From positions 13,400-77,399 of the forward strand of contig CAZRIT010000003.1 of the NCBI GenBank assembly GCA_964600225.1: a stretch of 64,000 nt of DNA. The letters are read 5' to 3'. Below are positions 13,963-56,210 of the stretch, piece by piece. The translations under genes were made by a program, and so were the position numbers. Source of the stretch: an uncultured Oscillospiraceae bacterium (GTDB lineage Bacteria; Bacillota; Clostridia; Christensenellales; CAG-138). Below the pieces are notes generated by a model. That model was not told where the DNA came from. It saw nothing but the letters and a program-made list of their open reading frames with translations, and did no database searches. Position 1 is the stretch's first letter; the number at the start of each line of letters is the position of its first letter.

Positions 13963-13991
13963 GCATGATACGCCTGTGAAACGCATATAGT
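13963..13991 (+). promoter_or_regulatory. sigma-E-like promoter GCATGAT-N14-CATATAGT upstream of spoIIIAA
   Basis: Resembles the B. subtilis sigma-E consensus (kmATAtt-N14-CATACAhT) as I recall it. It ends only 6 nt before ATG 13998. Confidence 0.35.
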
Positions 13992-15450: not shown

Positions 15451-15463
15451 GCGGTATGGCGTA

Positions 15464-15661
15464 ATGGAAGTGGAGATGCTGTTTAAGATTGCGGGCGTGG
15501 GCATCGTGGCGGCTATCGTGACGCAATTGCTCAAGCAGAGCGGGCGCGATGAAATGGCTACCATCGCCGCCATCGCGGGGCTTATCATCGGGCTGATGAT
15601 GATGCTGGATATGGTGGAGGAGCTGTTTACCAACGTGCGCGCCGTATTCAACCTGTACTGA
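15464..15661 (+). CDS. spoIIIAC: stage III sporulation protein AC
   Basis: 'MEVEMLFKIAGVGIVAAIVTQLLKQSGRDE...' aligns to B. subtilis 'MGVDVNVIFQIAGVGIVVAF...'. Confidence 0.85.
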   Translation: MEVEMLFKIAGVGIVAAIVTQLLKQSGRDEMATIAAIAGLIIGLMMMLDMVEELFTNVRAVFNLY

Positions 15662-15672
15662 GGAGAGCGGGC

Positions 15673-16068
15673 ATGAAGCTGATGCAGATACTGGTCATCG
15701 CCGTGGGCGGCGTGGCGCTGGCCGCCGTGGTGCGGCCCATCCGCAAGGAGATGGGCATGCTCATCGGCGCGGCCACGGGGCTGATCGTACTGGGGGCGGC
15801 GGTGGCGGAGTGGAGCGGGCTGATCGACGCGCTGCGGGAATTTGCCGCAGCCTACGGCGTGGACACGGGCTATATCGGGCTGCTTTTAAAGATCATCGGC
15901 ATTGCGTACCTGGCGCAGTTTGGCGCGCAGATCTGCACCGACGCAGGTGAAACGGCGGTGGCGGGCAAGGTGGAGCTGTTCGGGCGGGTGATGATACTGC
16001 TCAACGCCTTCCCAGCCGCCGCCATGACGGTGGCCACCGCCGTGGAGCTATTGGGCGGCAAGCCGTGA
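15673..16068 (+). CDS. spoIIIAD: stage III sporulation protein AD
   Basis: 131-aa membrane protein with 'LLKIIGIAYLAQFGAQICTDAGETAVAGKVELFGRVMIL'. Confidence 0.9.
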   Translation: MKLMQILVIAVGGVALAAVVRPIRKEMGMLIGAATGLIVLGAAVAEWSGLIDALREFAAAYGVDTGYIGLLLKIIGIAYLAQFGAQICTDAGETAVAGKVELFGRVMILLNAFPAAAMTVATAVELLGGKP

Positions 16069-17261
16069 GGCGGGCATGGTGCGGGCTTGCGGCGCTGGCT
16101 GCCGTGCTGCTGCTGCCCTGTGCGCGGACGCTGGCCGAGCCTGAGGAGACGCCGCCGCCCGACTTATCCGTGTCCGACGGCGTATCGGCCTGGACGGATA
16201 CGCTGGACTGGGCGGAGCTGGAGCGGCTGATGGCGCTGCTGCCAAACGAGGTGCGCGCGCTGTGGGGCGGCATGGGCGCGGCGGACACGGCACGGGAGAT
16301 CGCGCAATCGGGCACATGGGCGCTTGGCGGCGCGGGGAGGGTGTGGAGCGCCATCGGCGCGCTGCTGGAAACGGAGCGGAAGGCGCTTTGGGGCACGGCG
16401 GCCGCGCTTGTGGGGCTGACGCTGATGGGCGGCATCGTCGGCTCGCTCGGCGGCGACGGCAAAAGCGGCGTGCAGGATGCGGCGGGGTTTGTGTGCCGCT
16501 GCTTTACGCTCAGCGCGGTGCTGGCAGCGTTTGCGGGCGCATCCAAAAACGCCGTGGAGGGACTGCGGATCATGTGCGGCTGCATGGAGGCGGCCACGCC
16601 CGTGCTGATGACGCTCTTGACCGCGCTGGGGGGCACGGCGAGCGTGGGCGTGTATCAGCCCGCCATGGCGCTGTTAAGCGGCAGCGTGGGTAAGGTGATG
16701 GAGGGCGTGGTTGCGCCGCTGACCATGTGCGCGGGGCTGCTGGGCCTGTTTGAGCAGGTGGCGGAGCGGGTGCGGCTGGGGGAGCTGAGCGGGCTGATCC
16801 GCACCTGCCTCAAGTGGGCCATCGGGCTGATGGACACGCTGTATGCGGCCGTGACCACGCTGGGCGGCATGACGGCGGCGGCGTTCGACGGCGTAACGGT
16901 GCGCACGGCCAAGTATGCCGCAGGCAGCCTGTTACCGATGGCGGGGAGCCTGGTGACGGGATCGTTCGATGTGGCGCTGGGGTGCGCGGCGCTGGTGAAA
17001 AACGCCGTGGGGCTGACCAGCGTACTCATCTGCGTGGGGCTGATGCTTTCCCCCATGGTGAAGCTCGCGGCCACCATGCTCATGCTGCGCATCGCCGCGG
17101 CCATAACGGAGCCCATTGCGGACAAGAAGCAGACGGGCATGCTGCGCGTGGGCGCGGATATGATGGGCATGCTGCTCACCGCCAACGCCGTGGCCATGGG
17201 CATGTTTTTGATCACCGTGGGGCTGGTGACGGGCGTGGGCGGCGTGGGCTGGATCGGGTGA
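16065..17261 (+). CDS. spoIIIAE: stage III sporulation protein AE
   Basis: Signal peptide plus a polytopic protein in the conserved position. GTG start overlaps the AD stop. Confidence 0.9.
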   Translation: MRRAWCGLAALAAVLLLPCARTLAEPEETPPPDLSVSDGVSAWTDTLDWAELERLMALLPNEVRALWGGMGAADTAREIAQSGTWALGGAGRVWSAIGALLETERKALWGTAAALVGLTLMGGIVGSLGGDGKSGVQDAAGFVCRCFTLSAVLAAFAGASKNAVEGLRIMCGCMEAATPVLMTLLTALGGTASVGVYQPAMALLSGSVGKVMEGVVAPLTMCAGLLGLFEQVAERVRLGELSGLIRTCLKWAIGLMDTLYAAVTTLGGMTAAAFDGVTVRTAKYAAGSLLPMAGSLVTGSFDVALGCAALVKNAVGLTSVLICVGLMLSPMVKLAATMLMLRIAAAITEPIADKKQTGMLRVGADMMGMLLTANAVAMGMFLITVGLVTGVGGVGWIG

Positions 17262-17265
17262 CGGC

Positions 17266-17445
17266 ATGCAGACGATCGAAACGTTTACGGCCAATGTGAT
17301 TGCGCTGTCGATGTGCGTGGCGCTGGCGGAGTACGCCATCCCCGCGGGCACGCTTAAAAACACCGTGTCGGTGGCGGTGGGGCTGGTGTTTTTATCCGCT
17401 CTGGCTGATCAGATATTGGTCATATTTGCGCACTGGGGGGTATAA
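17266..17445 (+). CDS. spoIIIAF: SpoIIIAF-like protein reduced to the N-terminal two-TM segment (59 aa; below the track's 60-aa cutoff)
   Basis: My own translation is 'MQTIETFTANVIALSMCVALAEYAIPAGTLKNTVSVAVGLVFLSALADQILVIFAHWGV*'. It aligns to the B. subtilis SpoIIIAF N-terminus ('...IDMLLPSSSMQKYAKMVVSLLLIVVMLTPI'). It sits exactly between AE and AG. Confidence 0.5.
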   Translation: MQTIETFTANVIALSMCVALAEYAIPAGTLKNTVSVAVGLVFLSALADQILVIFAHWGV

Positions 17446-17447
17446 AC

Positions 17448-18068
17448 ATGCAAACAGATACACATTTTGCGCGGCCCGAGCGAAAGCGCATCGGACGCTT
17501 TTGGGAACGGCTGACGGGCGCCATCCGCAACAACAAGCGGCTGGAGTACGCCGTGTACGGGGGCATTGCGCTGATTGCGGTGATACTGTACGCGGCAAGC
17601 CTCATGCCGAAAAAAGCGGACGAGGGGCCGTTGACCAAGGCGTCCGAGCCGACGCAGGCGGCGCGCGTGGAGCAGCGGCTTCGATCGGTGCTCGGCTGCA
17701 TCCGCGGCGCGGGCAGGGTGGAGGTGATGGTCACCTACGAATCGGGCACGGAGCTTGTGACGGCCATGAGCACCAACGTTTCGGGCAACGCCTCGGAAAC
17801 CAGCGACGGGCAGAAGCTCAGCGTCACATCCCAAACGACCCAGTCCAGCCAGCCCGCCACCGTCGACGGCGCAGGTGGCAACGAGCCCATCATCCTGATG
17901 GAAAAGGAGCCCGCCGTGCGCGGCGTGATCGTGGTGGCGGAGGGAGCGGCGGATATCCGCGTCAAGCTGGATTTGCAGCGCGCGGTGCAGGCGGTGCTCG
18001 ACGTGCCGCTGTCCAAGATAGAGGTGTTTGAACTATCGTCGGCAACGGCTGCCGATGCAAGGGAATGA
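17448..18068 (+). CDS. spoIIIAG: stage III sporulation protein AG
   Basis: N-terminal TM, 'RLRSVLGCIRGAGRVEVMVTYESG', 'EPAVRGVIVVAEGAADIRVKLDLQRAVQAVLDVPLSKIEVFEL'. Confidence 0.85.
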   Translation: MQTDTHFARPERKRIGRFWERLTGAIRNNKRLEYAVYGGIALIAVILYAASLMPKKADEGPLTKASEPTQAARVEQRLRSVLGCIRGAGRVEVMVTYESGTELVTAMSTNVSGNASETSDGQKLSVTSQTTQSSQPATVDGAGGNEPIILMEKEPAVRGVIVVAEGAADIRVKLDLQRAVQAVLDVPLSKIEVFELSSATAADARE

Positions 18069-18081
18069 AGGAGGGATAACC

Positions 18082-18606
18082 ATGAAAAGGAGCAGCGGCA
18101 TGAATACGAAGGTGAACGGAAGGCTTTGGACGCTGTGCGGCGTTGCGCTGATACTGGTGGGCGCGGTGGCGGTCAACCTGATTGTCAACAGGGACAAGGC
18201 GGCGGATGCCGACAGCGTGCAGGCCTCGGCACAGACGGGACAGCCCGCGGCCGCGGCGCAGAAGGGCTTTTTTGAATCGTTCCGCATGGAGCGGGATGAA
18301 ACGCGCGAGCAGGAGATCGCCTACATCGACACCATCATCGTGCAGGGCGCGGACGCGGAGACCATGGCCGACGCCCAGCAGCAGAAGCTGGCCATCGTGG
18401 ACGCCATGGAAAAGGAGATGACCATCGAAAGCCTGCTGCGCGCCAAGGGCTTTGCCGATGCGGCGGTGACGCTGCACGCGGGCGCCGTCAACGTGGTCTT
18501 GCAGGCGGAGACGCTTTCGCCCGAGCAGGTGGCGCAGGTGCTGGATATCATCGTGCGTGAAACGGGAGAAAAGACGGACAATATCAAGATTACAACCGCG
18601 CAGTAG
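18082..18606 (+). CDS. spoIIIAH: stage III sporulation protein AH
   Basis: TM anchor, 'FFESFRMERDETREQEI', 'VTLHAGAVNVVLQAETLSPEQVAQVLDIIVRETG'. SD GAAGGAGGG before ATG 18082. Confidence 0.8.
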   Translation: MKRSSGMNTKVNGRLWTLCGVALILVGAVAVNLIVNRDKAADADSVQASAQTGQPAAAAQKGFFESFRMERDETREQEIAYIDTIIVQGADAETMADAQQQKLAIVDAMEKEMTIESLLRAKGFADAAVTLHAGAVNVVLQAETLSPEQVAQVLDIIVRETGEKTDNIKITTAQ

Positions 18607-18654
18607 CCGCCGTCGCGTCACACAAAGGACCCAAAGGTTCACAAGGAATGTGTA

Positions 18655-18683
18655 TTTACATCGAATTGGAACGCTGATATAAT
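18655..18683 (+). promoter_or_regulatory. sigma-A-type promoter TTTACA-17-TATAAT for the asp23 cluster
   Basis: Hexamers read directly, with a 17-nt spacer. Confidence 0.5.
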
Positions 18684-18710
18684 GAAGCCAAACAATGCAG
18701 GAGGTGTACC

Positions 18711-19181
18711 ATGGAAGAGAAGCAATTGGACGCTGTGGTCGGCGAAAACAATACCGACGGCGGAAAGATCATATTTGCAGACGACGTGGTGGCGACCATC
18801 GCGGCGCTGGCAACCAACGAAGTGGAAGGCGTATCGGGCATGAGCGGCGGCGTGATGGTGGATCTGTCCGAGCGGCTTGGCCGCAAGAACATCACCAAGG
18901 GCGTCAAGGTGGAGGTCGGCACGGAGGAAGTGGCCATCGACATCTCCGTCAACATTTGCTACGGTTATCGCATCCGCGAGGTGTGCTGCAACATCCAGCA
19001 GTCCGTCAGGGACGCGCTGGAGACGATGACGGGCCTCAGGGTCGTCGAGGTGAACGTGTTTGTGCAGTCGGTCACGTTTGAGCCCACCGAGTCGCCGCGC
19101 GCGGCCAAAAAACGCGAGAAGGAAGCGCAAAAGGAAGCCGAGCTTGCCGAACAGGCAGCCGCCGAAGCGACAGAGGAATAA
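18711..19181 (+). CDS. Asp23/Gls24 family envelope-stress protein
   Basis: 'KIIFADDVVATIAALATNEVEGVSGMSGG...GVKVEVGTEEVAIDISVNICYGYRI'. Confidence 0.85.
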   Translation: MEEKQLDAVVGENNTDGGKIIFADDVVATIAALATNEVEGVSGMSGGVMVDLSERLGRKNITKGVKVEVGTEEVAIDISVNICYGYRIREVCCNIQQSVRDALETMTGLRVVEVNVFVQSVTFEPTESPRAAKKREKEAQKEAELAEQAAAEATEE

Positions 19182-28649: not shown

Positions 28650-29948
28650 ATGAAGGAATGGCTGAATGGGAAATCCCCGTTGATCGGTAAACAAAATCGA
28701 ATCCGCATGCGGCTGATGCAATGCCTTGGCATATTGGCATGCGTGCCGATGATGGCGCTGTATCTGTCGGCGCCCATGCGGGCGCTGCGCGAAATGCCCG
28801 CGGCCATCCGTCTGCCGCGCGGCGCGGCGGCCGAGGATACGGCTTGGCAGCGGCCAAAATGGCTGACGGCCGATACCGTGGCGGTGCCCGTTTCGCAGCG
28901 GGGCGACGAACGGCTGACGGATATCGATCGGTTCACGCGCACCTATCGGCTGTTCGGCGTGGTGCCGATCAAGACCGTCGAGGTGCTGCGCACCGATGAG
29001 GTATACCTGGTACCCGGCGGCGCGGCGGTGGGCATCACCATCCATACGCGCGGCGTGATGGTGGTGGGCCTGGGCGCGGTGGATACCGCGGGCGGGGCGC
29101 TGAGCCCCGGCAGCGTGGCGGGCATCCGTGCGGGCGACGTAATCGTTTCCGCAGGCGGCGTGGCCGTTCGGGACGCGGAGCATCTCATGCAGCTATCCCA
29201 GTCGTGCGACGGGCTGATGACCGTAACGCTGGAACGCGAGGGCACGCGCGTGGATACCGCGGTGCGGTTGGTGGCCGACGCCGTGGACGGGGCGCTGCGC
29301 ATGGGATTGTGGGTGCGCGACAGCACCGCGGGCGTTGGCACGCTTTCCTTTTACGATGCGGAAACGGGCTGGTTTGCAGCGCTCGGGCACCCCGTCAACG
29401 ATGTGGATACGCAATCGCTGTTGCCTGTTGGCGAGGGCAAAATTGTATCGGCCGAGGTGCTGGATGTGCGCACGGGCGCGGAAGGGTATCCCGGCGAACT
29501 GGTGGGCGTGTTTGACGAAAGCATCGGCGCTCTGGGCGATATCCGCCTGAATACGGAGTTTGGGGTATTCGGGCCGATGCGCGCGCCCTATCAAAACCCC
29601 GTGATGTATCAACTGCCGCTCGGGTACGCGTACGAGGCGCACACGGGCGCGGCGTCCATACTGGCCACGGTATCGGATGTGGGCGTGCAGTCGTTTTCGT
29701 GCGAGATCATCCGCGTCAACGCGCAGTCCAACGCCGCCACCAAGGGCATGATTGTACAGGTGACGGATGAAAAGCTGATGGCGCAGACGGGCGGCATCGT
29801 GCAGGGCATGAGCGGCTGCCCGCTGATACAGGATGGCAAGCTGGTGGGCGTGGTCACGCATGTGTTTGTCAACGACCCCACGCGCGGGTATTGCGTGTAT
29901 GCCGAATGGATGCGTGAAATCCTGCTGGGCGCCGCCAAGGCGACATAG
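28650..29948 (+). CDS. spoIVB: SpoIVB peptidase (S55) with PDZ domain
   Basis: 'GVGTLSFYDAETGWFAALGHPV', 'GGIVQGMSGCPLIQDGKLVGVVTHVFVNDPTRGYCVYAEWM'. Confidence 0.9.
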   Translation: MKEWLNGKSPLIGKQNRIRMRLMQCLGILACVPMMALYLSAPMRALREMPAAIRLPRGAAAEDTAWQRPKWLTADTVAVPVSQRGDERLTDIDRFTRTYRLFGVVPIKTVEVLRTDEVYLVPGGAAVGITIHTRGVMVVGLGAVDTAGGALSPGSVAGIRAGDVIVSAGGVAVRDAEHLMQLSQSCDGLMTVTLEREGTRVDTAVRLVADAVDGALRMGLWVRDSTAGVGTLSFYDAETGWFAALGHPVNDVDTQSLLPVGEGKIVSAEVLDVRTGAEGYPGELVGVFDESIGALGDIRLNTEFGVFGPMRAPYQNPVMYQLPLGYAYEAHTGAASILATVSDVGVQSFSCEIIRVNAQSNAATKGMIVQVTDEKLMAQTGGIVQGMSGCPLIQDGKLVGVVTHVFVNDPTRGYCVYAEWMREILLGAAKAT

Positions 29949-29986
29949 CGCGGCAACAACGGACAGAGGGGGATGGGAGTGGGCGA

Positions 29987-30748
29987 ATGATCAGTACGAT
30001 GCTCATTGCGGGGAACAACGCCGCCGAAACGGCCGCGCTGGAAAAGGTGTTCTCCTATCTGGAGGATATTACGCTGCTGCCAGCGGTGCACGATGGCAGG
30101 GCGGCCGTTGATACCATCCTGCATCACAAGGTCGATATCCTGCTGCTGGATATGTTTTTGCAGCAGCTCGACGGGCTTTGCGTGATCGAACAGGTTGATC
30201 GGCTTGCTGAGGATCGCCGCCCGCTGATATTCGTCATGACCGATATCTCCGACGACCGCTTTTTGCACCGCGTGCGCGATAGGATCATCTATTGCTTTGT
30301 CAAGCCATTGCAATACGAGCTGGTGCAGCTTAGGGTGCTGGAGCTTTCGCGCACGGTGTACGCATCGGCCGGCGCCAAGGAGGCAAAGATTGATTTGCTG
30401 GATCGGCAGATTGCCGCGGATGTGCGCGCCATCGGCGTGCCCGCGCACCTGAAGGGCTACTATTATCTGCGCGACGCCATCCGCATCTATGCGCTCTCCA
30501 ACCGTCCCACCGAGATCAGCATCACCAACGATATCTATCCCATGGTCGCCAAGATGTACAACACCCGCCCGACGCTGGTGGAGCACGCCATCCGCAACGC
30601 CATCGAGATTGCGTGGACGCGCGGCAACCTGGATACCATCTACGAATACTTCGGCTATACCGTCAACGATTACAAGGGCAAGCCCAGCAATCGGGAATTC
30701 GTGGCGATGATGGCAGAGCGCGCGCTGAACGATTTGAAGCGGCGCTGA
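29987..30748 (+). CDS. spo0A: sporulation master regulator Spo0A (atypical receiver: DD pocket replaced by GN)
   Basis: C-domain 'GVPAHLKGYYYLRDAIRIY', 'HAIRNAIEIAWTRGNLDTIYEYFGYTVNDYKGKPSNREFVAMMAE'. Receiver 'MLIAGNNAAE...DILLLDMFLQQLDG...IFVMTD...CFVKPL'. Confidence 0.9.
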   Translation: MISTMLIAGNNAAETAALEKVFSYLEDITLLPAVHDGRAAVDTILHHKVDILLLDMFLQQLDGLCVIEQVDRLAEDRRPLIFVMTDISDDRFLHRVRDRIIYCFVKPLQYELVQLRVLELSRTVYASAGAKEAKIDLLDRQIAADVRAIGVPAHLKGYYYLRDAIRIYALSNRPTEISITNDIYPMVAKMYNTRPTLVEHAIRNAIEIAWTRGNLDTIYEYFGYTVNDYKGKPSNREFVAMMAERALNDLKRR

Positions 30749-32515: not shown

Positions 32516-32679
32516 AAAATGCGTTCCTCCTAACAAATTTGTACGGCGGCCGTAGGGCGTATCCGACGTACATCCTTATTATAACAGATGATTCGCATTT
32601 TGGGGGTGGGTTTGGTGCGATCGGTGGGAATATATGATGCGGAACGCATGGCGGCGGACAATCCCGCATACGCTGCACC

Positions 32680-33279
32680 ATGGGGCGGATTGGCATAAAA
32701 CAGCGGACAGGCGGTGCGGCGCGCGGCGTAAGGGCTGCGGGCGTTGCCGCCTGGTGCGGCATGATGACGCTGGGCGCGGCCATGGGCAGGGCGCTGTTTG
32801 AAACGCTCCGAAAGGATGCGTTTGCGGCGCTGCTGGCGGCGGCGCAAACGGGCGAACCCGCCGCAGTGCCGTCGCTGCTGCTTTCGGTGCGGTCGGTATT
32901 GCCCATGGCGCTGTACGGCATGACGATGCTGCTGTGCGGCTGTTCGAGGTGGCTGCTGCCGCTGTGGGCGGCGGCCGTGGCGGCGGCGGGCATGGTGACG
33001 GGCGCGGCGGCGGCGGTCGGTCTGTGCCTGTGGGAAGCGGGCCATTGGCAAGTGGTGCTGGGCACGATGGGCTTGCAGGCGGTGATCCTGCTGCCGCAGA
33101 TGCTGCTTATAGCGCTGTGGCCGCCGGAGCGCGCGTGGGGAACGCGCCTCCTGCCGCGGCAGGAGGCGGACGGGGCGGACGTGACGCGTTTTTTGATACG
33201 CCTGACGGTAGCCTGCGTATCGTCATCGCTGATGCAAACGGCGTCGTACGCGTGGTGGGTGCGCGCATTGTTCCGTTGA
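32680..33279 (+). CDS. polytopic membrane protein, possibly SpoIIM-like; start uncertain
   Basis: Weak resemblance to B. subtilis SpoIIM: 'GLQAVILLPQMLLIALW' versus 'FVSVLPQNLLLIPAYL'. About 5 hydrophobic segments. Ala/Gly-rich, so the call is tentative. Confidence 0.4.
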   Translation: MGRIGIKQRTGGAARGVRAAGVAAWCGMMTLGAAMGRALFETLRKDAFAALLAAAQTGEPAAVPSLLLSVRSVLPMALYGMTMLLCGCSRWLLPLWAAAVAAAGMVTGAAAAVGLCLWEAGHWQVVLGTMGLQAVILLPQMLLIALWPPERAWGTRLLPRQEADGADVTRFLIRLTVACVSSSLMQTASYAWWVRALFR

Positions 33280-33325
33280 CGCTTGCCCGAAGGGCATGGT
33301 ACACTAACGCCGTGAGGTGAACAAC

Positions 33326-34501
33326 ATGAAACGACGCGTGATACTGATTGTACTGGATAGCGTAGGCATCGGCGCCATGCCCGATGCGGCGCGGTTTGGC
33401 GACGAGGGCGCGCATACCCTTGGCAATATTTACAAGCTGCGCGGCAAATTGAACCTGCCAAACCTGTATCAGCTGGGCCTATCAAGCATTGCCGACAGCC
33501 GTTTGCCCAAGCCCGAGGGCGAGGCGACGGGGGCGTTCGGCCGCCTGGCGGAGCAGACGTTGGCAAAGGACACCACCTGCGGGCACTGGGAGATGGCGGG
33601 CCTGCCGCTGGACAAGCCGTTCCAAACCTTCCCCGACGGGTTCCCCAAGGCGTTCATCGAGGCGTTCGAACAGCGCATCGGCAGGAAAACGCTTGGCAAC
33701 TGCGTGGCCTCGGGCACGGAGATTATCCGGCGCCTCGGCGACGAGCATGCGCGCACGGGCAGCCCCATCGTCTACACCTCCGCCGACAGCGTGTTCCAGA
33801 TTGCCGCGCACGAGCAGGTGATACCGCTTGCAGAGCTGTATCATATCTGTGAGATTGCGCGCGAAATGCTGGTGGGCGAATATCTGGTGGGCCGCGTCAT
33901 TGCAAGGCCGTTTTTGGGCGCGAGCGGGCACTATTACCGCACCGAAAACCGCAAGGACTATGCCGTGGCGCCGTTTTCGGATACGATACTGGATGCGCTG
34001 GATTCCGCAGGGCACGAGGTGGTCGGCGTGGGCAAGATTGAGGATATCTTCTGCCACCGCGGCGTCACCACCGTCAACCATACCAAAAACAACCCCGACG
34101 GCATCCGTGCCGCCATCGATTATATCAAAATGGGACAGGGCGCGTTCGTGTTCGTCAACCTGGTGGATTTCGATATGCTCTACGGCCACCGCAACGATAT
34201 CGAGGGCTACGCGGCCGCGCTGGAGGCGTTCGACGCCGCGCTGCCCGAAATGCTCGGTCACCTGCAAGAGGGCGATATGTTGATGATTACGGCCGATCAC
34301 GGGTGTGACCCGACCAGCGCAAGCACCGATCACTCGCGCGAGTACATCCCGCTTGTCATCGCGGGCAGGCATGTGCGCGCGGGGGTAGACCTGGGCACCC
34401 GCCAAAGCTTTGCCGATATCGGCGCAACCATCTATGAATACCTGACGGGGAAACGGTGGGCAGCGGGTACGTCCTTTTTGAACGATATTTGGGAGGATTG
34501 A
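33326..34501 (+). CDS. deoB: phosphopentomutase
   Basis: 'RVILIVLDSVGIGAMPDA', 'TLGNI', 'ITADHGCDP'. Confidence 0.9.
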   Translation: MKRRVILIVLDSVGIGAMPDAARFGDEGAHTLGNIYKLRGKLNLPNLYQLGLSSIADSRLPKPEGEATGAFGRLAEQTLAKDTTCGHWEMAGLPLDKPFQTFPDGFPKAFIEAFEQRIGRKTLGNCVASGTEIIRRLGDEHARTGSPIVYTSADSVFQIAAHEQVIPLAELYHICEIAREMLVGEYLVGRVIARPFLGASGHYYRTENRKDYAVAPFSDTILDALDSAGHEVVGVGKIEDIFCHRGVTTVNHTKNNPDGIRAAIDYIKMGQGAFVFVNLVDFDMLYGHRNDIEGYAAALEAFDAALPEMLGHLQEGDMLMITADHGCDPTSASTDHSREYIPLVIAGRHVRAGVDLGTRQSFADIGATIYEYLTGKRWAAGTSFLNDIWED

Positions 34502-34503
34502 CA

Positions 34504-35328
34504 ATGACGCAGCTATCCGACGTTATCCATGCTGCCACGGAGCGGCTTCGCCCCCTCTGCGGCGACAACTGCCGCATCGGGCTGATACTCGGCTCGGGCC
34601 TGGGCGATTATATCGAGCGGGCAAAAAATCTGCGCACCGTGGATTATGCCGATATCCCGGGCTTTCCGCATTCGGGCGTATTGGGCCACAAGGGCCGTTT
34701 TGCCGTGGGCGAGGTGGCGGGCAAAACCGTGGTGGCCATGCAGGGACGGTTCCATTTTTACGAAGGGCATCCCGCCGAGCTGCTTGCGCTCGGCGTGCGC
34801 ACCATGAAGCGGCTGGGAGTAACGCACCTGCTGCTGACCAACGCGGCGGGCGGCGTGGATATGGATTTTCACGCGGGCGACCTGATGCTCATCACCGACC
34901 ACATCAACTTTGCGCGCGTCAACCCGCTCATCGGCGAAAACGACGATGCGTACGGCACGCGCTTCCCCGATCAATCGAACGTGTACGACCGCAATCTGCG
35001 GCAGAAGGTGCTCGAGCTGGCCAAGGCGGCGGATATCCCGCTGCGGCAGGGCGTGTACATGATGTTTTCGGGCCCCTGCTTTGAAACGCCCGCGGAGATT
35101 CGCATGGCGCGCACGCTCGGCGCATCGGCCGTGGGCATGTCCACCGTGCCCGAGGCCATCGCCGCTTCCCACTGCGGCATCCAAACGCTGGGCATTTCGC
35201 TCATTACCAACATGGCTGCGGGCATCCTGGATCAGCCGTTGACGCATGACGAGGTGCAGCAGGCCGCCGCCGAGGCCTCGGCGCGCTTTGGCGCGCTGGT
35301 GGATATGATCATCGAACGGGTGTTTTGA
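34504..35328 (+). CDS. punA: purine nucleoside phosphorylase (PNP family)
   Basis: 'IGLILGSGLG', 'GHKGRFAVGEVAGKTVVAMQGRFHFYEG', 'GMSTVPEAI'. SD GGGAGG. Confidence 0.9.
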   Translation: MTQLSDVIHAATERLRPLCGDNCRIGLILGSGLGDYIERAKNLRTVDYADIPGFPHSGVLGHKGRFAVGEVAGKTVVAMQGRFHFYEGHPAELLALGVRTMKRLGVTHLLLTNAAGGVDMDFHAGDLMLITDHINFARVNPLIGENDDAYGTRFPDQSNVYDRNLRQKVLELAKAADIPLRQGVYMMFSGPCFETPAEIRMARTLGASAVGMSTVPEAIAASHCGIQTLGISLITNMAAGILDQPLTHDEVQQAAAEASARFGALVDMIIERVF

Positions 35329-35347
35329 AGCAGGGCTTCCGCCCGCC

Positions 35348-35538
35348 GTCACCCAAGGCGCTTAGCGGCGGAGAATCTTTACACCGATTGCCCTCGAGCC
35401 AATGAGCTCCGCGGCGATTGAGCGGCCGCAGGCCGCGCTCCTGTCATTCTGAGGAGCGTAAATCTCTCTCCTGTCATTCTGAGGAGCGCAAGCCTTTCTC
35501 CTGTCATTCTGAGGGCCGTAGGCCCGAAGAATCTTTCC
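35348..35538. repeat. intergenic hairpin-repeat cluster: one diverged full unit, two 30-bp half units, one full unit ('TGTCATTCTGAGG...GAAGAATCT' family)
   Basis: Full-like unit at 35348..35380. 'CTCCTGTCATTCTGAGGAGCG' at 35438 and 35468. Full hairpin unit 'TGTCATTCTGAGGGCCGTAGGCCCGAAGAATCTTTCC' at 35502..35538. Same family as 47607..47872. Confidence 0.75.
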
Positions 35539-35630
35539 GAGCGTGAGCGAGGAACGTTGCATGCGTCTGCTGCGACAGAGGCTCCTTTGGCACAGCATGC
35601 GCGGTTTGCGCAACCATACAAAAACACCCG

Positions 35631-35660
35631 TCATGAACGCCCTCCGTTTCGACATAGTAT
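35631..35660 (+). promoter_or_regulatory. sigma-E-like promoter (T)CATGAAC-N14-CATAGTAT upstream of the dacB-like gene
   Basis: Same pattern as upstream of spoIIIAA and spoIVA, about 25 nt before ATG 35685. Confidence 0.3.
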
Positions 35661-35684
35661 AGTGTGGAAACGGGGGGCTTTCGG

Positions 35685-36827
35685 ATGCAAAAACGATGGT
35701 GCGCACGGATACTGTGCATATGTATGCTGCTGACGCCGATGCGGGCGCTTGCCGAGCAGGCGGTCATCGGCGAGACGGCGGGGCTTTCGGGCGCGGTGCT
35801 GGCCGAGGCCACAACGATGAGCCGACTTTGGGCCGAGAGCGCCGATACGGAATTTGCCGTGGCGGGGCTATCGAAGCTGCCTGCCATATTGACCATTGCG
35901 CAGGCCATGGACGAGGGCAGCGTGCGCGCGGACACGGTGATGCGCGTATCCACGCATGCGGCAAGCATCCCTGGCCCTACGGCATTTTTGGACGGCGGCG
36001 AGGAGATCGGCGCGGGGGAGCTGTTCAAGGCGGCGGTCATGATCTCGGCGGGCGACGCCATCATGACGCTCGGTGAAAACGCGTACGGCTCGGAGAGCGT
36101 GTTTGTGGAAAACATCAACGTGACCTTGCGCCAGCTTGGCATCGAAAAGACCGTGCACGATGCGCTGGGCACCGATACGCTGTTTACCGCGTGGGAGCTG
36201 ACCACTTTGGGCGCGGCGGCGGCGGGCAGCGCGGCGTTTTCCCGCTACGCGGCGCTGTACTACGATGGCATCACCCATGCCGACGGGCGGGAGACCGAGC
36301 TGGTCAACGCCAACAGACTGCTCAACAACTACGCGGGCTGCGTCGGGGTGATGACGGGCTCGTCCGCGTCCGACGGGTATTGCGGGGTGTTCTATACCGT
36401 CCGTAACCGCACGGCGCTGATTGCGGTGGTCATCGGCGCGGAATCTGCCGCAAAACGCGCCTCGGCCGCGGTGGCGCTGATGGATTACGGGTTTGCCAAC
36501 TTCCGTACCGAAACCGTCTCCACCGCATCGGAGGTGGTGGTCAAGGGCCTGCCCGTGCGCGACGGCACGGTGAAATCGGTCGATCTGGTCACACGCAGCA
36601 CCCGCACGGTGGTCATCGAGGGCAGGCAGGGAAAGCTGACGGCCGAGCGGACGGTGCCCGAATACCTGGAAGCGCCGCTGACGGCCTCCACGCCCGTGGG
36701 CAGCGTTTCCTACCGCAACGAGGCGGGCGAGGTGGTGGCCGAGGTGCCGCTGTTTCCCGCGTGCGATGTGGAGGCGTTTGCATTATTGGATATCCTGATG
36801 CGGATATTGGCGATCTATTTGGCATGA
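35685..36827 (+). CDS. D-alanyl-D-alanine carboxypeptidase (PBP5/DacB)-like protein with degenerate catalytic motifs
   Basis: Signal peptide. Colinear with B. subtilis DacB, but SxxK is 'AGLSK' (Ser to Gly), SxN is 'SAG', and KTG is 'MTG'. Confidence 0.8.
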   Translation: MQKRWCARILCICMLLTPMRALAEQAVIGETAGLSGAVLAEATTMSRLWAESADTEFAVAGLSKLPAILTIAQAMDEGSVRADTVMRVSTHAASIPGPTAFLDGGEEIGAGELFKAAVMISAGDAIMTLGENAYGSESVFVENINVTLRQLGIEKTVHDALGTDTLFTAWELTTLGAAAAGSAAFSRYAALYYDGITHADGRETELVNANRLLNNYAGCVGVMTGSSASDGYCGVFYTVRNRTALIAVVIGAESAAKRASAAVALMDYGFANFRTETVSTASEVVVKGLPVRDGTVKSVDLVTRSTRTVVIEGRQGKLTAERTVPEYLEAPLTASTPVGSVSYRNEAGEVVAEVPLFPACDVEAFALLDILMRILAIYLA

Positions 36828-36886
36828 GTTGCTTTTTTTTGCCGCGTTCCCTATAATGGTACTATCGCACACAAAGGAGAGTACAA

Positions 36887-37531
36887 GTGTTATTGCGATT
36901 GCTGTCCGACCCGATGCAGATTGTGTATCGCATCCCCGCCATATTGATTGGGCTGACCGTGCATGAATGGGCGCACGCCTACGCGGCGTACCGCCTGGGC
37001 GACCCGACAGCCAGAAACCTGGGCCGCATGACGCTCAACCCGTTTGCGCATATCGACCCGTTTGGCATCCTGTGCCTGCTGCTGGTGGGCTTTGGGTGGG
37101 CAAGGCCCGTGCCCGTTAACCCCAGGAACTATTCCAACTATCGCCGCGACGATATCATCGTGTCGCTGGCGGGCATTACGGCCAACCTCATCACGGCGTT
37201 TTTGTTCACGTTCGTGCTCTACATCGGCGCGTTCAAGCTGAACCTCTACAATAACATTGCGTTTAGCAACATATTCACCGCCATTGTCACCATCAACCTG
37301 TCGCTTGCGGTGTTCAACCTGCTGCCCGTATACCCGCTGGACGGCTCGCATGTGCTGGAAAGCCTTGCCGCGCGCAGGATGCCGCGGTTTTTCCTGTTCA
37401 TGCGCCAGTACGGCCAGTATATCCTGATCGTGCTGCTGTTTACGGGCCTGCTGACGGGTATATTGAGCACGGTGGTTGGCTGGCTGTACGCAGGGTTTTC
37501 CAAGGCGGCCCTGGCCGTGCTTGGCCTGTAA
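36887..37531 (+). CDS. site-2 protease family (M50) zinc metalloprotease
   Basis: 'LTVHEWAHAYAAYRLGD' (HExxH), polytopic, 'NLLPVYPLDGSHV'. Confidence 0.8.
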   Translation: MLLRLLSDPMQIVYRIPAILIGLTVHEWAHAYAAYRLGDPTARNLGRMTLNPFAHIDPFGILCLLLVGFGWARPVPVNPRNYSNYRRDDIIVSLAGITANLITAFLFTFVLYIGAFKLNLYNNIAFSNIFTAIVTINLSLAVFNLLPVYPLDGSHVLESLAARRMPRFFLFMRQYGQYILIVLLFTGLLTGILSTVVGWLYAGFSKAALAVLGL

Positions 37532-47517: not shown

Positions 47518-47606
47518 TTCAGCAGAAAAACTTCAGAAATAATCTTTGGCAGGGCAAGTGATGCAGAGGTATTTTTTCGCGGGTATTCCAAGGGCGCTTC
47601 ACATAT

Positions 47607-47872
47607 TGTCATTCTGAGGCGCGCTTTACAAACTGTCATTCTGAGGAGCGCTTTACATATTGTCATTCTGAGGCGCGAAGCGACGAAGAATCTTGCGTGT
47701 ACGCGTTGTCTGAAAGATTCCTCGACTACGCTCGGGATGATACGGTATAGGATGCCGTTTTGAGAGGCGAAGTTTCCTCATATCAGTCTGCGGCGCTTTT
47801 CGCTCTGTCATTCTCGGGAGCGCAGGTTTTATCATGTCATTCTGAGGCGCGAAGCGGTGAAGAATCTTGTCC
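47607..47872. repeat. intergenic hairpin-repeat cluster ('TGTCATTCTGAGG...GAAGAATCT' family): half units, full units and one inverted diverged unit
   Basis: Units start at 47607, 47634 and 47661 (27-bp period; the third is full length to 47696). Inverted copy 'AGATTCCTCGACTACGCTCGGGATGA' at 47715-47740. Partial unit at 47806. Full unit at 47835-47870. Confidence 0.75.
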
Positions 47873-47902: not shown

Positions 47903-48328
47903 TCAGGGCACGGCAGCCTCTGCATCCTGCCAGCCGATGCGGAAGCTGCCCGCGTGCCCATCCGCCGTCAGGCGCACGATCACGCTGCCGTCCGTTGTCA
48001 CGTCAAAGGCTGAGGTGGGGAGCGATTCCTCGAAAAACACCGTGTCGCCGTCGGCGTTGCGGATTTCCAAATTGAGCGTGCCCTGCATTGTTTCGATTTC
48101 CACATGCAGCACGGCGGGCGACGTGTTGGTTCGCAGCTTCCCTGTGCACAGACCGCTGAAGCGGGCATAGCGGGCCGACCAGCTTGACGCGGTTTTCTGC
48201 TCCGTCCAGCCGATGCGCACGGCGGAGCGGAACGAGCCAAACCCCAGCAGGTACAGCGCGCCGACCAGCGCGAGAATGGCCGCGACGAGCGCTGCGGTCC
48301 TTCCGATGGATTTTGGCTGCGTCTTCAT
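47903..48328 (-). CDS. hypothetical membrane-anchored protein (141 aa)
   Basis: N-terminal TM 'AALVAAILALVGALYLLGF' plus a beta-rich ectodomain. AAGGAG SD before ATG 48328. TTGACA-17-TATATT promoter at 48373-48401 (minus strand). Confidence 0.55.
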   Translation of the reverse strand: MKTQPKSIGRTAALVAAILALVGALYLLGFGSFRSAVRIGWTEQKTASSWSARYARFSGLCTGKLRTNTSPAVLHVEIETMQGTLNLEIRNADGDTVFFEESLPTSAFDVTTDGSVIVRLTADGHAGSFRIGWQDAEAAVP

Positions 48329-48492
48329 CCTTACCACTCCTTGCACAGGCCTTTTTGTCAGGCTATATAGTCAATATAGCGCGAACCGCCGATGCTGTCA
48401 ACAGCGTGCAATCGCCGTCCGCCGCACAAAAACAAACAGGAGCCTCCCGTGCGGGAAGCCCCTGCGCCAGGCTGCGGGGGATGCGGTGCGCG

Positions 48493-53599: not shown

Positions 53600-53629
53600 G
53601 TCTATTGTAACCAAGCGCCTTCATATACT
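53600..53629 (+). promoter_or_regulatory. sigma-E-like promoter (G)TCTATTG-N14-CATATACT upstream of spoIVA
   Basis: Same -10 pattern as the spoIIIAA and dacB-like upstream regions, 35 nt before ATG 53665. Confidence 0.3.
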
Positions 53630-53664
53630 TGTATGGATTGATACGGGATAGAAGGAGGCTTGGC

Positions 53665-55143
53665 ATGGACAGGAATACGCTTTATCGGGACATTGCCCAA
53701 CGCACGCAGGGCGACATCTACATCGGGGTGGTCGGGCCTGTCAGGACGGGCAAGTCCACGTTCATCAAGCGGTTCGTGGAATTGCTTGTCTTGCCGAACA
53801 TCGATAACGAGCATATCAGACAGCGCACGCTCGACGAGCTGCCGCAATCGGCCGCGGGCAAAACCGTCATGACCACGCAGCCAAGGTTTGTGCCCAACGA
53901 CGCCGCGCACATTGTGCTTGGCGAGCATGTGGGCTTCAACGTGCGGCTGGTGGACTGCGTGGGCTACATGGTGCCGGGCGCCATCGGCTCTACCGAAAAC
54001 GGCGCGCCGCGCATGGTCAGCACCCCGTGGTACGATCATGACATCCCCTTTTCGGAGGCGGCGGAGCTTGGCACCAAAAAGGTGATGACCGAGCACTCCA
54101 CAGTGGGGATTGTGATGACCACCGACGGCAGCATCACCGACCTGCCGCGGGAGGCGTATGTGGACGCCGAGCAGCGTGTGGTGGAGCAGATGCGGCAGAC
54201 GGGCAAGCCCTTCCTGATCGTGCTCAACAGCGCCAACCCCAACGGCGAGGCGGCGCAAACGCTTAAGCTTGAGCTCGAGCAGCGCTACGGCGTGGGCGTG
54301 TGCCTGATGGATGTGATGCGCATGAGCCTGTCGGGCACGCAGGAACTGCTCACGCAGATGCTGATGGAGTTCCCGCTCAGGCTGATCGAAATCAAGCTGC
54401 CCGGCTTTATGCGCGCGCTGCCTGCCGAGCACCCGCTGATACAACGGGTGATGCTGCCGATCCTTTCGACGCTGGAAGGGCTGCATCGGCTGCGCGATTA
54501 CCGCATGCTCATCGACGCCCTGACCGATATCGAGCAGTTCACGGGCGCGCGCGTGGAAAAGGTGCTGCTGGGCGAGGGCACGGCGACGCTTTCCCTGCAG
54601 CCCGAGGACAGTCTGTTCTATGCGGTATTGAGCGAGCAGTGCGGCTGCGAAATTGCGGACGAGTACGATTTGATTACCAAGCTGACCGATTTTTCACACG
54701 CCAAGCGCGAGTACGACCGCATTGCCGATGCATTATATGACGCCACCAACCTGGGCTACGGCATGGTATCGCCCGATATTTCGCTTATGCAGCTGGAGGA
54801 ACCGCAGATCACCAGGCAGGGCAACCGCTTTGGCGTGCGGCTGCGTGCGCGCGCAACGGGGCTGCACGTCATCCGCGTGGACGTGGAGAACGAGGTCAAC
54901 CCCATCGTCGGCACCGAGCAGCAATCGGAGGCGCTGGTGCGGTATCTGGCCGAAACGTTCGAGCAGGACCCACAGGCCATTTGGCAGACCAACATCTTCG
55001 GCAAACCGCTCTACGACCTGGTGCAGGAGGGCATGCAGGGCAAGATCAACCGCATGCCGGAAAACGTCCGCAGCCGCGTGCAGACCACCCTGCAGCGCAT
55101 CGTCAACGAAGGCTGCAACGGGTTAATCTGCATCATGCTGTAA
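53665..55143 (+). CDS. spoIVA: stage IV sporulation protein A (coat basement-layer ATPase)
   Basis: 'IYRDIAQRTQGDIYIGVVGPVRTGKSTFIKRF', full-length colinear protein. SD GAAGGAGG. Confidence 0.95.
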   Translation: MDRNTLYRDIAQRTQGDIYIGVVGPVRTGKSTFIKRFVELLVLPNIDNEHIRQRTLDELPQSAAGKTVMTTQPRFVPNDAAHIVLGEHVGFNVRLVDCVGYMVPGAIGSTENGAPRMVSTPWYDHDIPFSEAAELGTKKVMTEHSTVGIVMTTDGSITDLPREAYVDAEQRVVEQMRQTGKPFLIVLNSANPNGEAAQTLKLELEQRYGVGVCLMDVMRMSLSGTQELLTQMLMEFPLRLIEIKLPGFMRALPAEHPLIQRVMLPILSTLEGLHRLRDYRMLIDALTDIEQFTGARVEKVLLGEGTATLSLQPEDSLFYAVLSEQCGCEIADEYDLITKLTDFSHAKREYDRIADALYDATNLGYGMVSPDISLMQLEEPQITRQGNRFGVRLRARATGLHVIRVDVENEVNPIVGTEQQSEALVRYLAETFEQDPQAIWQTNIFGKPLYDLVQEGMQGKINRMPENVRSRVQTTLQRIVNEGCNGLICIML

Positions 55144-55166
55144 TATCGCATCTTTCGGGCAAGCTA

Positions 55167-55269
55167 GTCACGGCAATATCTGCCGTGACACAGCCCCTCA
55201 AAAACGTTGTTTTTGATGCGGAGGGCTATGAAACGTTCAGTCACGGCAGCAAGTGCCGTGACTTTTTTT
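55167..55269 (+). terminator. twin hairpins with identical 9-bp stems (GTCACGGCA/TGCCGTGAC); the second is followed by T7
   Basis: Hairpin 1 at 55167-55189 (loop ATATC). Hairpin 2 at 55240-55262 (loop GCAAG) plus TTTTTTT at 55263-55269. The gpr SD starts 4 nt later. Confidence 0.55.
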
Positions 55270-55289
55270 ATGCGGGAGGATTTATTTTT

Positions 55290-56192
55290 ATGCGGCAGTA
55301 TCGGACGGATTTGGCGCGCGATGCGTTTGTCGGCAGCGGCGGCATGTCGGGCGTGGTGGAGCGCGTGGAGCAGTTTGGCGAGGTGGAGGTATCGCGCATT
55401 CGCATCGTAACGGAGAAGGCGGCCGCGACGCTTGGCAAGCCCGTGGGCAACTACATCACCATTGAGTTGACGGACATGGCCGACGCCGATGAGATTGCAC
55501 AGCGGATTGCGGCGGAGCTGACCAACCTCATGCGCGATATCACGGGCGACGTGCTGGTCATCGGTCTTGGCAACCGCTTTGTCACGCCCGATTCCCTCGG
55601 CCCGCGCACGGTGGACAAGGTGTACGTCACCCGCCATATCCGCGCCTATGCGCCAGAGCTTGCACCCGAGGGCATGCGCGCGGTCTCGGCCATTGCGCCC
55701 GGGGTGCTGGGCGTAACGGGGCTGGAGACGGTGGAGGTGGTCAAGGGCTTGATCGCCAACGCCAGGCCCGCCGCGGTGCTGTGCATCGATGCGCTGGCGT
55801 CGGAACGGGTTTCCCGCATCACCTCGGTGGTGCAGCTAAACGATCACGGCCTCATGCCGGGCGCGGGCGTGGGCAACCGCCAGCAGGGGCTGGACAGCCA
55901 GACGCTGGGCGTGCCCGTGTTCGCCATCGGGGTGCCCACGGTGGTGTATGCGGCCACCATTGCGGAGGAAACCATCCGCCTGGTGGCGCGGCAAACGGGC
56001 GTCAGCGCCGACGGCGGGGCGCTCAGGAGCATGGCGGGCTCGCTCATCCACGAGCGCATGGGCAACCTTGTCGTTACCCCCAAGGACGTGGATAAACTGG
56101 TGGAGGACGCCTCCAAGCGGCTCTCCGACGGGATCAATCGGGCGCTGCACGGCGAGCGCACGGAAAAAATCGGGGCATTGCTCAACACCTGA
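55290..56192 (+). CDS. gpr: germination protease GPR
   Basis: 'RTDLARDA', 'LVIGLGNRFVTPDSLGPRTVDKVYVTRHI', 'LCIDALAS'. SD GGGAGGA. Confidence 0.9.
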   Translation: MRQYRTDLARDAFVGSGGMSGVVERVEQFGEVEVSRIRIVTEKAAATLGKPVGNYITIELTDMADADEIAQRIAAELTNLMRDITGDVLVIGLGNRFVTPDSLGPRTVDKVYVTRHIRAYAPELAPEGMRAVSAIAPGVLGVTGLETVEVVKGLIANARPAAVLCIDALASERVSRITSVVQLNDHGLMPGAGVGNRQQGLDSQTLGVPVFAIGVPTVVYAATIAEETIRLVARQTGVSADGGALRSMAGSLIHERMGNLVVTPKDVDKLVEDASKRLSDGINRALHGERTEKIGALLNT

Positions 56193-56210
56193 CCGCATAC
56201 CTTAGAGCAT

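Follow-up and report, generated by a model that had tools for sequence, protein, structure and literature searches.

The window analyzed here, a stretch of 64,000 nucleotides from an uncultured Oscillospiraceae bacterium (GTDB lineage Bacteria; Bacillota; Clostridia; Christensenellales; CAG-138; assembly GCA_964600225.1, contig CAZRIT010000003.1, positions 13,400 to 77,399 of the forward strand), carries a gene for a 380-residue protein with the layout of the D-alanyl-D-alanine (DD-) carboxypeptidases related to penicillin-binding protein 5 (PBP5). The gene lies between deoB and punA on one side and the genes for an M50 peptidase, ScpA and ScpB on the other (Table 1). Judged from its sequence, its product is a member of the peptidase S11 fold-family that lacks every catalytic hallmark of that family, and we are confident that it represents a working non-enzyme under selection rather than a gene in decay. 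The plus-strand open reading frame (ORF) spanning 35664..36827 is real, and the ATG at 35685 is its likely start because a Shine-Dalgarno sequence, GGGGGG at 35672-35677, precedes it and the homologues start at the same place. The G+C content at its third codon positions (GC3 = 0.81) is that of the adjoining genes and its codon usage is host-like; the minus-strand ORFs that overlap it were set aside as artefacts of high G+C content.

The predicted protein shows an S11 domain followed by a PBP5_C domain, the order that characterizes the peptidase S11 or class C low-molecular-weight penicillin-binding protein fold-family, while the NCBIfam models for DacA, DacC, DacD and PBP3 match it weakly and below their cut-offs. 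By eye, the N-terminus (MQKRW...RALA, followed by EQ) displays a basic n-region, a hydrophobic core and an AxA site, a layout common to the homologues. At the other end, the helix retains a D-[IL]-L-x-R-[IL] pattern in relatives and combines high hydrophobicity with a modest hydrophobic moment (0.27); on the strength of the structural model it probably serves, like its PBP5 counterpart, as an amphipathic anchor in the membrane. The AlphaFold2 model, built from 31 family sequences, has a mean predicted local distance difference test score of 92.5 and a predicted template-modelling (TM) score of 0.84. It superposes on E. coli PBP5 (1nzu) across both domains, with TM-scores of 0.80/0.87 and a root-mean-square deviation of 2.4 Å over 341 columns, and Foldseek likewise recovers PBP5 and PBP6 structures at TM-scores of 0.73-0.80.

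Against this well-preserved fold, none of the three elements of an active S11 DD-carboxypeptidase, namely SxxK with its Ser, SxN and KTG, is present. HMMER alignments with the solved PBP5/PBP6 homologues (5tr7, 4k91, 3it9) set AVAGLSKL against pASLTKM, ISAGDA against QSGNDA and GVMTGSS against GIKTGHT. The same correspondences emerge from residue mapping with hmmalign through the family hidden Markov model onto E. coli PBP5 (mature numbering; the reference sequence used reproduces all published residue numbers). Both methods agree with an earlier sequence-only reading of this DNA, which had proposed precisely these changes of Ser to Gly, SxN to SAG and KTG to MTG in a protein with a signal peptide, a transpeptidase-fold domain and a C-terminal beta domain; that layout, too, is matched by the signal-peptide-like N-terminal region, the Pfam domains and the model, whose superposition on PBP5/PBP6 supplies the structure-based comparison suggested there. 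The sequence-only reading would have fallen to an alternative alignment that restored the motifs. A regular-expression scan of the whole protein found no SxN and no [KHR][TS]G, and the sole other SxxK, S254AAK, is unconserved in relatives; therefore, no realignment can restore them. Having lost the nucleophile Ser, the Asn of SxN and the Lys of KTG, the protein would be unable to form an acyl-enzyme, and it is predicted to be neither a DD-carboxypeptidase nor a penicillin-binding protein.

Table 1. Features of the degenerate PBP5/Dac-like gene and related elements, in window coordinates; residue equivalences are to mature E. coli PBP5.
Feature	Position	Strand	Remarks
deoB	33317-34501		upstream of the degenerate gene
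punA	34456-35328		upstream of the degenerate gene
RNA hairpin	35630..35686	+	main stem 35639-35650 / 35667-35678; minimum free energy -33.7 kcal/mol
Sigma-E-like mother-cell promoter motif	35631..35660	+	-35 TCATGAA 35631-35637, 15-nt spacer, -10 CATAGTAT 35653-35660
CDS, 380-aa degenerate PBP5/Dac-like protein	35685..36827	+	stop codon included
Predicted Sec signal peptide, residues 1-23	35685..35753	+	MQKRWCARILCICMLLTPMRALA, followed by EQ; read from the sequence by eye
Peptidase_S11 (penicillin-binding fold) domain, residues ~37-253	35793..36443	+	Pfam PF00768, 5.3e-24
Former SxxK, now G61-L-S-K64	35865..35876	+	Ser to Gly, Lys kept
Former SxN, now S121-A-G123	36045..36053	+	Asn to Gly, Ser kept
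Former KTG, now M223-T-G225	36351..36359	+	Lys to Met, Thr-Gly kept
PBP5 R248, here R258 (ligand-carboxylate clamp equivalent)	36456..36458	+	kept
PBP5_C beta-sandwich domain, residues ~273-363	36501..36773	+	Pfam PF07943, 1.7e-8; model strands 273-358
C-terminal helix, residues 367-379	36783..36821	+	candidate amphipathic membrane anchor; helix H367-379 in the model
PBP5 S44, here G61			lost (nucleophile Ser)
PBP5 K47, here K64			kept
PBP5 S110, here S121			kept
PBP5 N112, here G123			lost
PBP5 D113, here D124			kept
PBP5 K213, here M223			lost
PBP5 T214, here T224			kept
PBP5 G215, here G225			kept
PBP5 H216, here S226			changed
Promoter pattern, copy 1	13963-13991		directly upstream of spoIIIAA
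Promoter pattern, copy 2	32646-32674		directly upstream of orf199 (SpoIIM position)
Promoter pattern, copy 3	35631-35660		directly upstream of the degenerate gene
Promoter pattern, copy 4	56175-56203		directly upstream of spoIIP

The altered motifs are themselves strongly conserved. A search of 5.8 billion proteins yielded 269 homologues, and motif states were counted on the best 120 of these (45-62% identity). Together with the query, the nucleophile position is G in 121/121 sequences and SAG is present in 120/121; the position of the KTG Lys is occupied by M, L, I, V or Q in the close homologues, K being found in none, and the strings VAGLxKLPA, MISAGDAI and GLxTGS[SQ] are near-invariant across the 120. 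An alignment of 31 diverse members has 46 invariant columns, 32 of which fall within the 83 residues of the former active-site blocks (VAGLxKLPAxLTL, GPTAFL, KAAVMISAGDAI, H..DGRETELVNANR, GCxGLxTGSS..GYCGVF and R258). The mean majority fraction is 0.81 in these cleft blocks; the remainder of domain 1 has a value of 0.60, and domain 2 one of 0.51. By the Nei-Gojobori method, the ratio of non-synonymous to synonymous substitution rates (dN/dS) is 0.03-0.35 in >150 pairwise comparisons between loci taken from genome assemblies, and 0.06-0.35 for those pairs with dS < 1. This signature of purifying selection and the invariance of the altered motif residues together reject relaxed selection, which the sequence-only reading had offered next to a non-catalytic role; the latter is the half of its proposal that sequence analysis sustains, and its question whether relatives keep the SxxK, SxN and KTG motifs is answered by close homologues that all share the altered versions. 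The locus thus displays loss of catalytic residues, clade-wide purifying selection and monophyly of the degenerate forms (see below), as would be expected of a conserved pseudo-enzyme.

A profile search against 1.84 billion cluster representatives gave 1197 matches (E <= 1e-30), which we ranked by score. Five motif states succeed one another down this ranking: a near group resembling the window's protein (G-K-S-G-[MLIV]); a wider set in which the Ser of SxN is also replaced (G-[RK]-x-G-[A/S]); intermediates with SxN, without K213 and usually without S44 (GKSN[Q/A/M]); a few members without K213 only (SKSN[C/A/S]); and, at the lowest scores, canonical SKSNK enzymes. A neighbor-joining tree, rooted with E. 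coli PBP5 and computed from distances that excluded the motif columns and two positions on either side, with three badly aligned sequences removed, unites all 89 degenerate representatives in a single clade that contains no canonical sequence (bootstrap 71/100), and within it the 54 sequences that have lost N112 form an exclusive clade (100/100). At the nucleophile position, G accounts for 100% of the degenerate sequences in both the near and the wide group, whereas canonical relatives have S in 100%. The equivalent of Arg248 is conserved in 100% of all degenerate groups, and those of Thr214 and Gly215 in 96-100% of the near and wide groups and 84% of the intermediates. In PBP5, Arg248 makes a bidentate contact with the carboxylate of the ligand (PMC4979060). 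The graded states suggest that K213 would have been lost first, then S44, then N112 and, in the sister branch, also S110, and that the degenerate clade descended once, in all probability, from an active sporulation DD-carboxypeptidase linked to deoB/punA.

The family comprises at least ~89 clusters at 50% identity, and some of its members are abundant, with contigs from gut Christensenellales and their relatives numbering in the hundreds; one of them, P0469, has 410 indexed blocks and is present on a contig of 2.6 Mb. All of the 80 loci that we collected from species-representative genomes come from uncultured metagenome-assembled genomes (MAGs) of Clostridia, with carriers labelled Oscillospiraceae, Christensenellales, Christensenella sp., Clostridium sp. 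CAG:1024, Candidatus Aphodomorpha and Feifaniaceae. Four members (P0295, P0309, P0457 and P0469) bear the database names 'D-alanyl-D-alanine carboxypeptidase (family protein)' or 'DacF precursor', which credit them with an activity that their sequences should preclude. K213 alone has been lost in the members P0339-P0342, P0348, P0350 and P0352 (SKSN[C/A/S]TG; e.g. L086 9001-10140). A change of K213 in E. coli PBP5 reportedly abolishes carboxypeptidase activity and leaves penicillin binding in place; by analogy, such members might form long-lived acyl-enzymes.

Gene order in the window, which is the one classically seen in Firmicutes, runs through spoIIIAA-AH, asp23, nusB, xseA, ispA, dxs, tlyA, nadK, argR, recN, spoIVB and spo0A, and then through a 5'-nucleotidase (minus strand), orf199, deoB, punA, the degenerate gene, the gene for a 214-residue M50 peptidase, scpA and scpB. 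Among the 80 loci, M50, scpA and scpB are found downstream of the homologue in 66, 63 and 61 cases, and deoB and punA upstream in 38 and 19, many contigs ending short on the upstream side; deoB is also upstream in L082, L085, L086 and L087. In an abundant Christensenellales species the order is spoIVB-spo0A-x-deoB-[degenerate gene]-ruvCAB, around the K213-only-lost P0339 it is deoB-punA-gene-surE, and around the canonical P0439, on a 4.7-Mb contig, it is deoB-pyrimidine nucleoside phosphorylase-gene. The locus L082, which holds an intermediate, reads SpoIIM-deoB-punA-gene-lysA-M50-scpA-scpB-x-YtfJ, followed by a second, canonical S11 gene. The constant linkage is with deoB(-punA) upstream, and the adjacency to M50-scpA-scpB is lineage-specific. 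Since the canonical P0439 and the K213-only-lost P0339 share the slot after deoB and a nucleoside phosphorylase gene, the degenerate gene is, on comparison of these neighborhoods, the positional descendant of the deoB/punA-linked DD-carboxypeptidase.

This revises the synteny proposed in the sequence-only reading, which had likened the punA...scpA-scpB setting to the scpA-scpB-ypuI-dacB neighborhood of B. subtilis. The adjacency to scpA-scpB does exist here, but the gene lies upstream of M50-scpA-scpB rather than after scpA-scpB-ypuI and before spmA-spmB, the constant partner is deoB(-punA), and in L082 the position after scpB-ytfJ belongs to a separate canonical S11 gene. The two S11 paralogues of that Christensenellales locus lie 5 kb apart: the degenerate one (GKSN-Q) at 5634-6797 after punA, and the canonical one (STTK, SGN, KTG) at 11491-12627 after scpB-x-ytfJ and before rluB. 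Neither the window nor the +-8 kb inspected at each of the 80 loci yielded a second S11 paralogue. A functional link between the degenerate gene and M50-scpA-scpB was considered and rejected, given that the adjacency is absent in other degenerate members and that lysA intervenes in L082; we regard the arrangement as synteny by inheritance. In the window, the M50 gene has a TATAAT box of its own (...ccctataatgg...) ~30 nt before its GTG start (36827-36887); hence M50-scpA-scpB is probably a transcription unit separate from the degenerate gene.

The region upstream of the gene points to expression during sporulation. A CATAnnnT box lies 20-40 nt before the start codon in 68/81 loci (shuffle mean 10), and, counted from that box, the upstream regions of these 81 loci have G/T at -21, A/C at -20, T at -18 and T-rich positions at -16/-15; positions -21 to -15 fit kmATAtt. 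The spacing is that of the sigma-E consensus of B. subtilis, kmATAtt-N14-CATAcAmT. Within the 64 kb of the window, counting both strands, the pattern [GT]CAT[GAT]-N16/17-CATAnnnT occurs exactly 4 times (shuffle mean 0.54, maximum 3), and each copy immediately precedes a gene (Table 1). In B. subtilis, spoIIIA, spoIIM and spoIIP are all members of the sigma-E regulon. The copies before spoIIIAA, orf199 and spoIIP have the form GCAT[GT]-N16-CATAnnnT and lie only 6-8 nt from the called starts, so that translation of all three genes probably begins at a site further downstream. The -10 element of the degenerate gene is CATAnnnT, with T fixed at position 8, and not the CATnnTA of SigF/SigG promoters, and a scan of 35250-37000 detected neither a sigma-70-type promoter nor a canonical terminator. 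In C. difficile, sigma-E and sigma-K are reported to have the -10 element in common and to be told apart by the -35 element, which is ATA for the former and AC for the latter (PMC3789822), and in B. subtilis dacB is controlled by SigE and dacF by SigF/G (10.1101/2022.02.25.481979). By regulation, then, the gene would resemble dacB and by position dacF, and we consider its membership in the sporulation or sigma-E regulon likely on these sequence features. The ribosome-binding site, promoter and sporulation assignment noted in the sequence-only reading accord with all of this.

The same promoter is embedded in a strongly predicted RNA hairpin (z = -5.4; 0/200 shuffles as good). The 5' arm of its main stem sits between the -35 and -10 elements, its loop holds the -10 box, its 3' arm comprises the Shine-Dalgarno sequence, and its outer pairs take in the AUG. 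Equivalent hairpins with differing stem sequences are significant in 18/19 of the relatives tested (z -2.5 to -6.4), many of them being followed by a U-run, and the canonical relative L085 has the same promoter-in-hairpin layout upstream. A consensus fold shows compensatory changes at 8/12 pairs; the MAFFT alignment of the hairpin region is imperfect, and per-sequence folds were used alongside it. The computed probability that the Shine-Dalgarno sequence is unpaired is 0.0002 in the read-through RNA versus 0.66 in a transcript beginning downstream of the -10 box; 39 control genes of the window have a median of 0.37. A scan of 35200-36000 against Rfam returned no match.

Several other features of the window deserve mention. 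It is rich in sporulation genes (13998-19181, 28650-30748 and 53629-57221: spoIIIAA-AB-AC-AD-AE-(AF/AG)-AH, spoIVB, spo0A, spoIVA and spoIIP), and by this gene content the source organism possesses the core machinery of endospore formation. ORFs at 4426-5745 (+), 47903-48346 (-) and 17448-18068 (+) have host-like codon usage and no Pfam match; the last, situated between spoIIIAE and spoIIIAH, may encode a divergent SpoIIIAF/AG. The intergenic region between punA and the degenerate gene contains a 30-bp tandem repeat of 2.6 copies (35438-35514; consensus CTCCTGTCATTCTGAGGAGCGCAAACCTCT), whose core, TGTCATTCTGAGG, is present again, in 4 copies, in the non-coding DNA downstream of groEL (47605-47847); with 7 matches to the core versus 0.09 expected, it looks like a dispersed intergenic repeat family. 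Finally, DapB (57232-58458, minus strand, 408 residues), whose gene adjoins dapA and asd, combines the N- and C-terminal domains of dihydrodipicolinate reductase with a C-terminal ACT domain in what is an unusual-looking fusion.

Bringing these strands together, we propose that the protein is a sporulation-specific, non-catalytic protein that binds peptidoglycan peptides or acts as a regulator, expressed from a sigma-E-like promoter, a composite reading in which the considerations for and against seem to us evenly balanced. Its ancestor would have been the deoB/punA-linked sporulation DD-carboxypeptidase of Firmicutes, from which the catalytic residues were lost stepwise, the remodelled cleft being frozen afterwards by purifying selection. 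Transcription would start at the early mother-cell promoter, with a predicted first nucleotide at about 35666-35668, within the hairpin. Read-through RNA from the upstream nucleoside genes deoB-punA would fold into the terminator-like hairpin, burying the ribosome-binding site and start codon and leaving the deoB-punA transcripts terminated or untranslatable, while RNA from the sporulation promoter, without the 5' arm, could be translated. The mother cell would then export the protein, and the C-terminal helix would hold it in the space surrounding the forespore, where the germ cell wall and cortex are assembled. There, the former active-site cleft, which still holds the carboxylate-binding Arg, the Thr-Gly of beta3 and the Lys of the first motif, may bind the C-terminal end of the peptidoglycan stem peptide without cleaving it. 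Such binding could serve to sequester stem peptides or to mark them, or it could recruit, position or regulate further enzymes of the cortex or germ-cell wall. The time and place of expression, the export and the nature of the ligand are steps that we infer from sequence, and a peptidoglycan peptide as the ligand is itself a tentative choice, somewhat less likely than not. More speculatively, and in our view doubtful in its full form, this could be the first low-molecular-weight penicillin-binding protein turned peptidoglycan 'reader', which, expressed in the mother cell, would bind D-Ala-terminated stem peptides of the cortex or germ cell wall without cleavage and, through occupancy of the substrate or by recruitment or gating of further cortex enzymes, set the degree of cross-linking; in that case the first step, loss of K213, might have produced a 'trap' competent in acylation and defective in deacylation, with the nucleophile being lost later.

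Certain observations weigh against this proposal. The close relatives are all uncultured MAGs, and their sporulation is itself read from gene content. The sigma-E assignment is by motif: the spacer is 15 nt here, all three of the other sites having one of 14 nt, and the A-T-A of the -35 element is only partly conserved family-wide. One of those sites precedes orf199 (32680-33279), which occupies the position of SpoIIM in relatives (L082, PF01944), has no Pfam match and aligns with the SpoIIM of L082 at a BLASTP E = 0.08, so that SpoIIM is a tentative identity for it. Occlusion of the Shine-Dalgarno sequence is strong in the window and its ~18 nearest relatives and weak family-wide (Wilcoxon p = 0.05). 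The neighbor-joining tree is a simple one and gives a single origin moderate support (71/100). Moreover, the equivalents of Arg258, Thr224 and Gly225 are conserved in active enzymes as well, and their retention could partly reflect constraints of the fold; the occupant of the cleft could just as well be a protein partner.

This last point leads to the main rival explanation, that the protein is a non-catalytic scaffold or regulator whose cleft binds another protein, such as a cortex synthase, a hydrolase or a component of a channel. There are precedents for dead cell-wall enzymes that act as regulators, DipM among them (PMC10336132), and the analogy would be with the degenerate LytM proteins SpoIIQ, EnvC, NlpD and DipM, regulators or scaffolds for other factors. 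The clade-specific fixed changes P66, A67, P98, T99, S182, G234 and F236 reshape the surface of the cleft, and the C-terminal domain and putative anchor have been retained, all of which would suit such a role. On the other hand, no conserved partner gene is linked to it, the downstream genes varying among M50-scpAB, ruvCAB, surE and lysA, and what every degenerate lineage keeps is exactly the carboxylate subsite for a small ligand; we therefore think a protein-binding scaffold rather unlikely. It is also conceivable that the protein is a genuine pseudo-enzyme of the vegetative envelope and that the CATA motif is incidental, the promoter having been assigned by motif only and some carriers being labelled Christensenella, a genus described as non-sporulating. 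However, two of the other three copies of the pattern in the 64 kb precede spoIIIAA and spoIIP, the box recurs at most loci, the scan of 35250-37000 showed no sigma-70-like promoter, the hairpin would block translation of read-through RNA, and the window is dense in sporulation genes, which together make a vegetative role improbable.

Still less probable is that the protein remains an enzyme with a non-canonical mechanism, for example through Ser121 with Lys64, or by some other hydrolysis of a different substrate. Within the near clade both S121 and K64 (as K or R) remain conserved, and no other part of the protein is conserved as strongly as the cleft. Yet, the sister 'wide' branch has T, C, L, N or G in place of S121 with the rest of the signature kept, and residual catalysis is unlikely because the Ser of SxN has been lost there; furthermore, K64 is often Arg, and the oxyanion-hole geometry is built around the lost Ser. 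A new clade-specific set of catalytic Cys, His or Asp residues was sought and rejected, H198 and C219 being shared with the canonical relatives. That three catalytic residues have been lost might finally suggest a pseudogene in decay or under relaxed selection after loss of function, which the intact frame with its host-like codon usage, the low dN/dS, substituted residues invariant over 45-62% identity and the confident structure prediction render extremely implausible.

If the proposed non-catalytic role holds, its implications extend beyond this locus. Database names that imply activity would lead to wrong metabolic and antibiotic-target inferences. The graded intermediates would constitute a natural series in which a serine enzyme becomes a binding protein, and the promoter inside the hairpin would be a compact design by which a gene comes under the strict control of a single developmental sigma factor. 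Among the papers searched we found no description of an S11/PBP5 pseudo-enzyme, and in a recent study of C. difficile each of the four serine-type Dac proteins is taken to be an active enzyme (PMC13344953).

Among the systems with which this protein can be compared, PBP5 and PBP6 of E. coli (DacA and DacC; class C penicillin-binding proteins of low molecular weight, MEROPS S11) are the closest in structure, with the same two-domain fold (TM-scores 0.73-0.80), a predicted signal peptide and C-terminal helix, and the equivalents of K47, S110, D113, T214, G215 and R248. They differ in the residues replaced here, with S44 and N112 both becoming Gly, K213 becoming Met and H216 becoming Ser, and in the loop equivalent to PBP5 residues 80-85, which is 6 residues shorter here; unlike PBP5, this protein should neither bind penicillin nor turn over D-Ala-D-Ala. 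DacB (PBP5*) of B. subtilis is a mother-cell DD-carboxypeptidase that limits cross-linking of the cortex. Shared with it are the S11 and PBP5_C domains, a promoter that appears to be of the mother-cell type and, in the lineage of the window, the proximity of scpA-scpB; by contrast, the motifs are lost here, no spmA/spmB-like genes follow, M50-scpA-scpB lies downstream, and the DacB-like slot after scpB-ytfJ in L082 is held by the separate canonical paralogue. The slot after deoB(-punA), occupied by members ranging from canonical to degenerate, instead matches that of the forespore DD-carboxypeptidase DacF, the deoB-punA order before our gene being the drm-pupG-dacF arrangement of B. subtilis; dacF, however, is under SigF/SigG control, as opposed to the sigma-E/K-type CATAnnnT seen here, and the gene described here has lost the catalytic motifs.

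Two further parallels are of principle rather than of descent. In IS10/Tn10, 'protection from outside activation' operates through read-through RNA that sequesters the ribosome-binding site, and similarly only RNA from the gene's own promoter would free the Shine-Dalgarno sequence from the hairpin at 35630-35686; the differences are that the promoter here would belong to a developmental sigma factor, that the gene is chromosomal and that in many relatives the hairpin is terminator-like for the upstream operon. The degenerate LytM factors (SpoIIQ, EnvC, NlpD and DipM), of which SpoIIQ is sporulation-specific, offer a counterpart, in that the fold of a dead peptidoglycan enzyme has been conserved for binding or regulation, although theirs is a metallopeptidase fold and the one considered here a serine penicillin-binding fold. 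A conserved dead DD-carboxypeptidase would, accordingly, extend the principle of the dead hydrolase as regulator from the LytM factors and SpoIIQ to the penicillin-binding fold and, if our proposal is true, to the control of spore cortex assembly.

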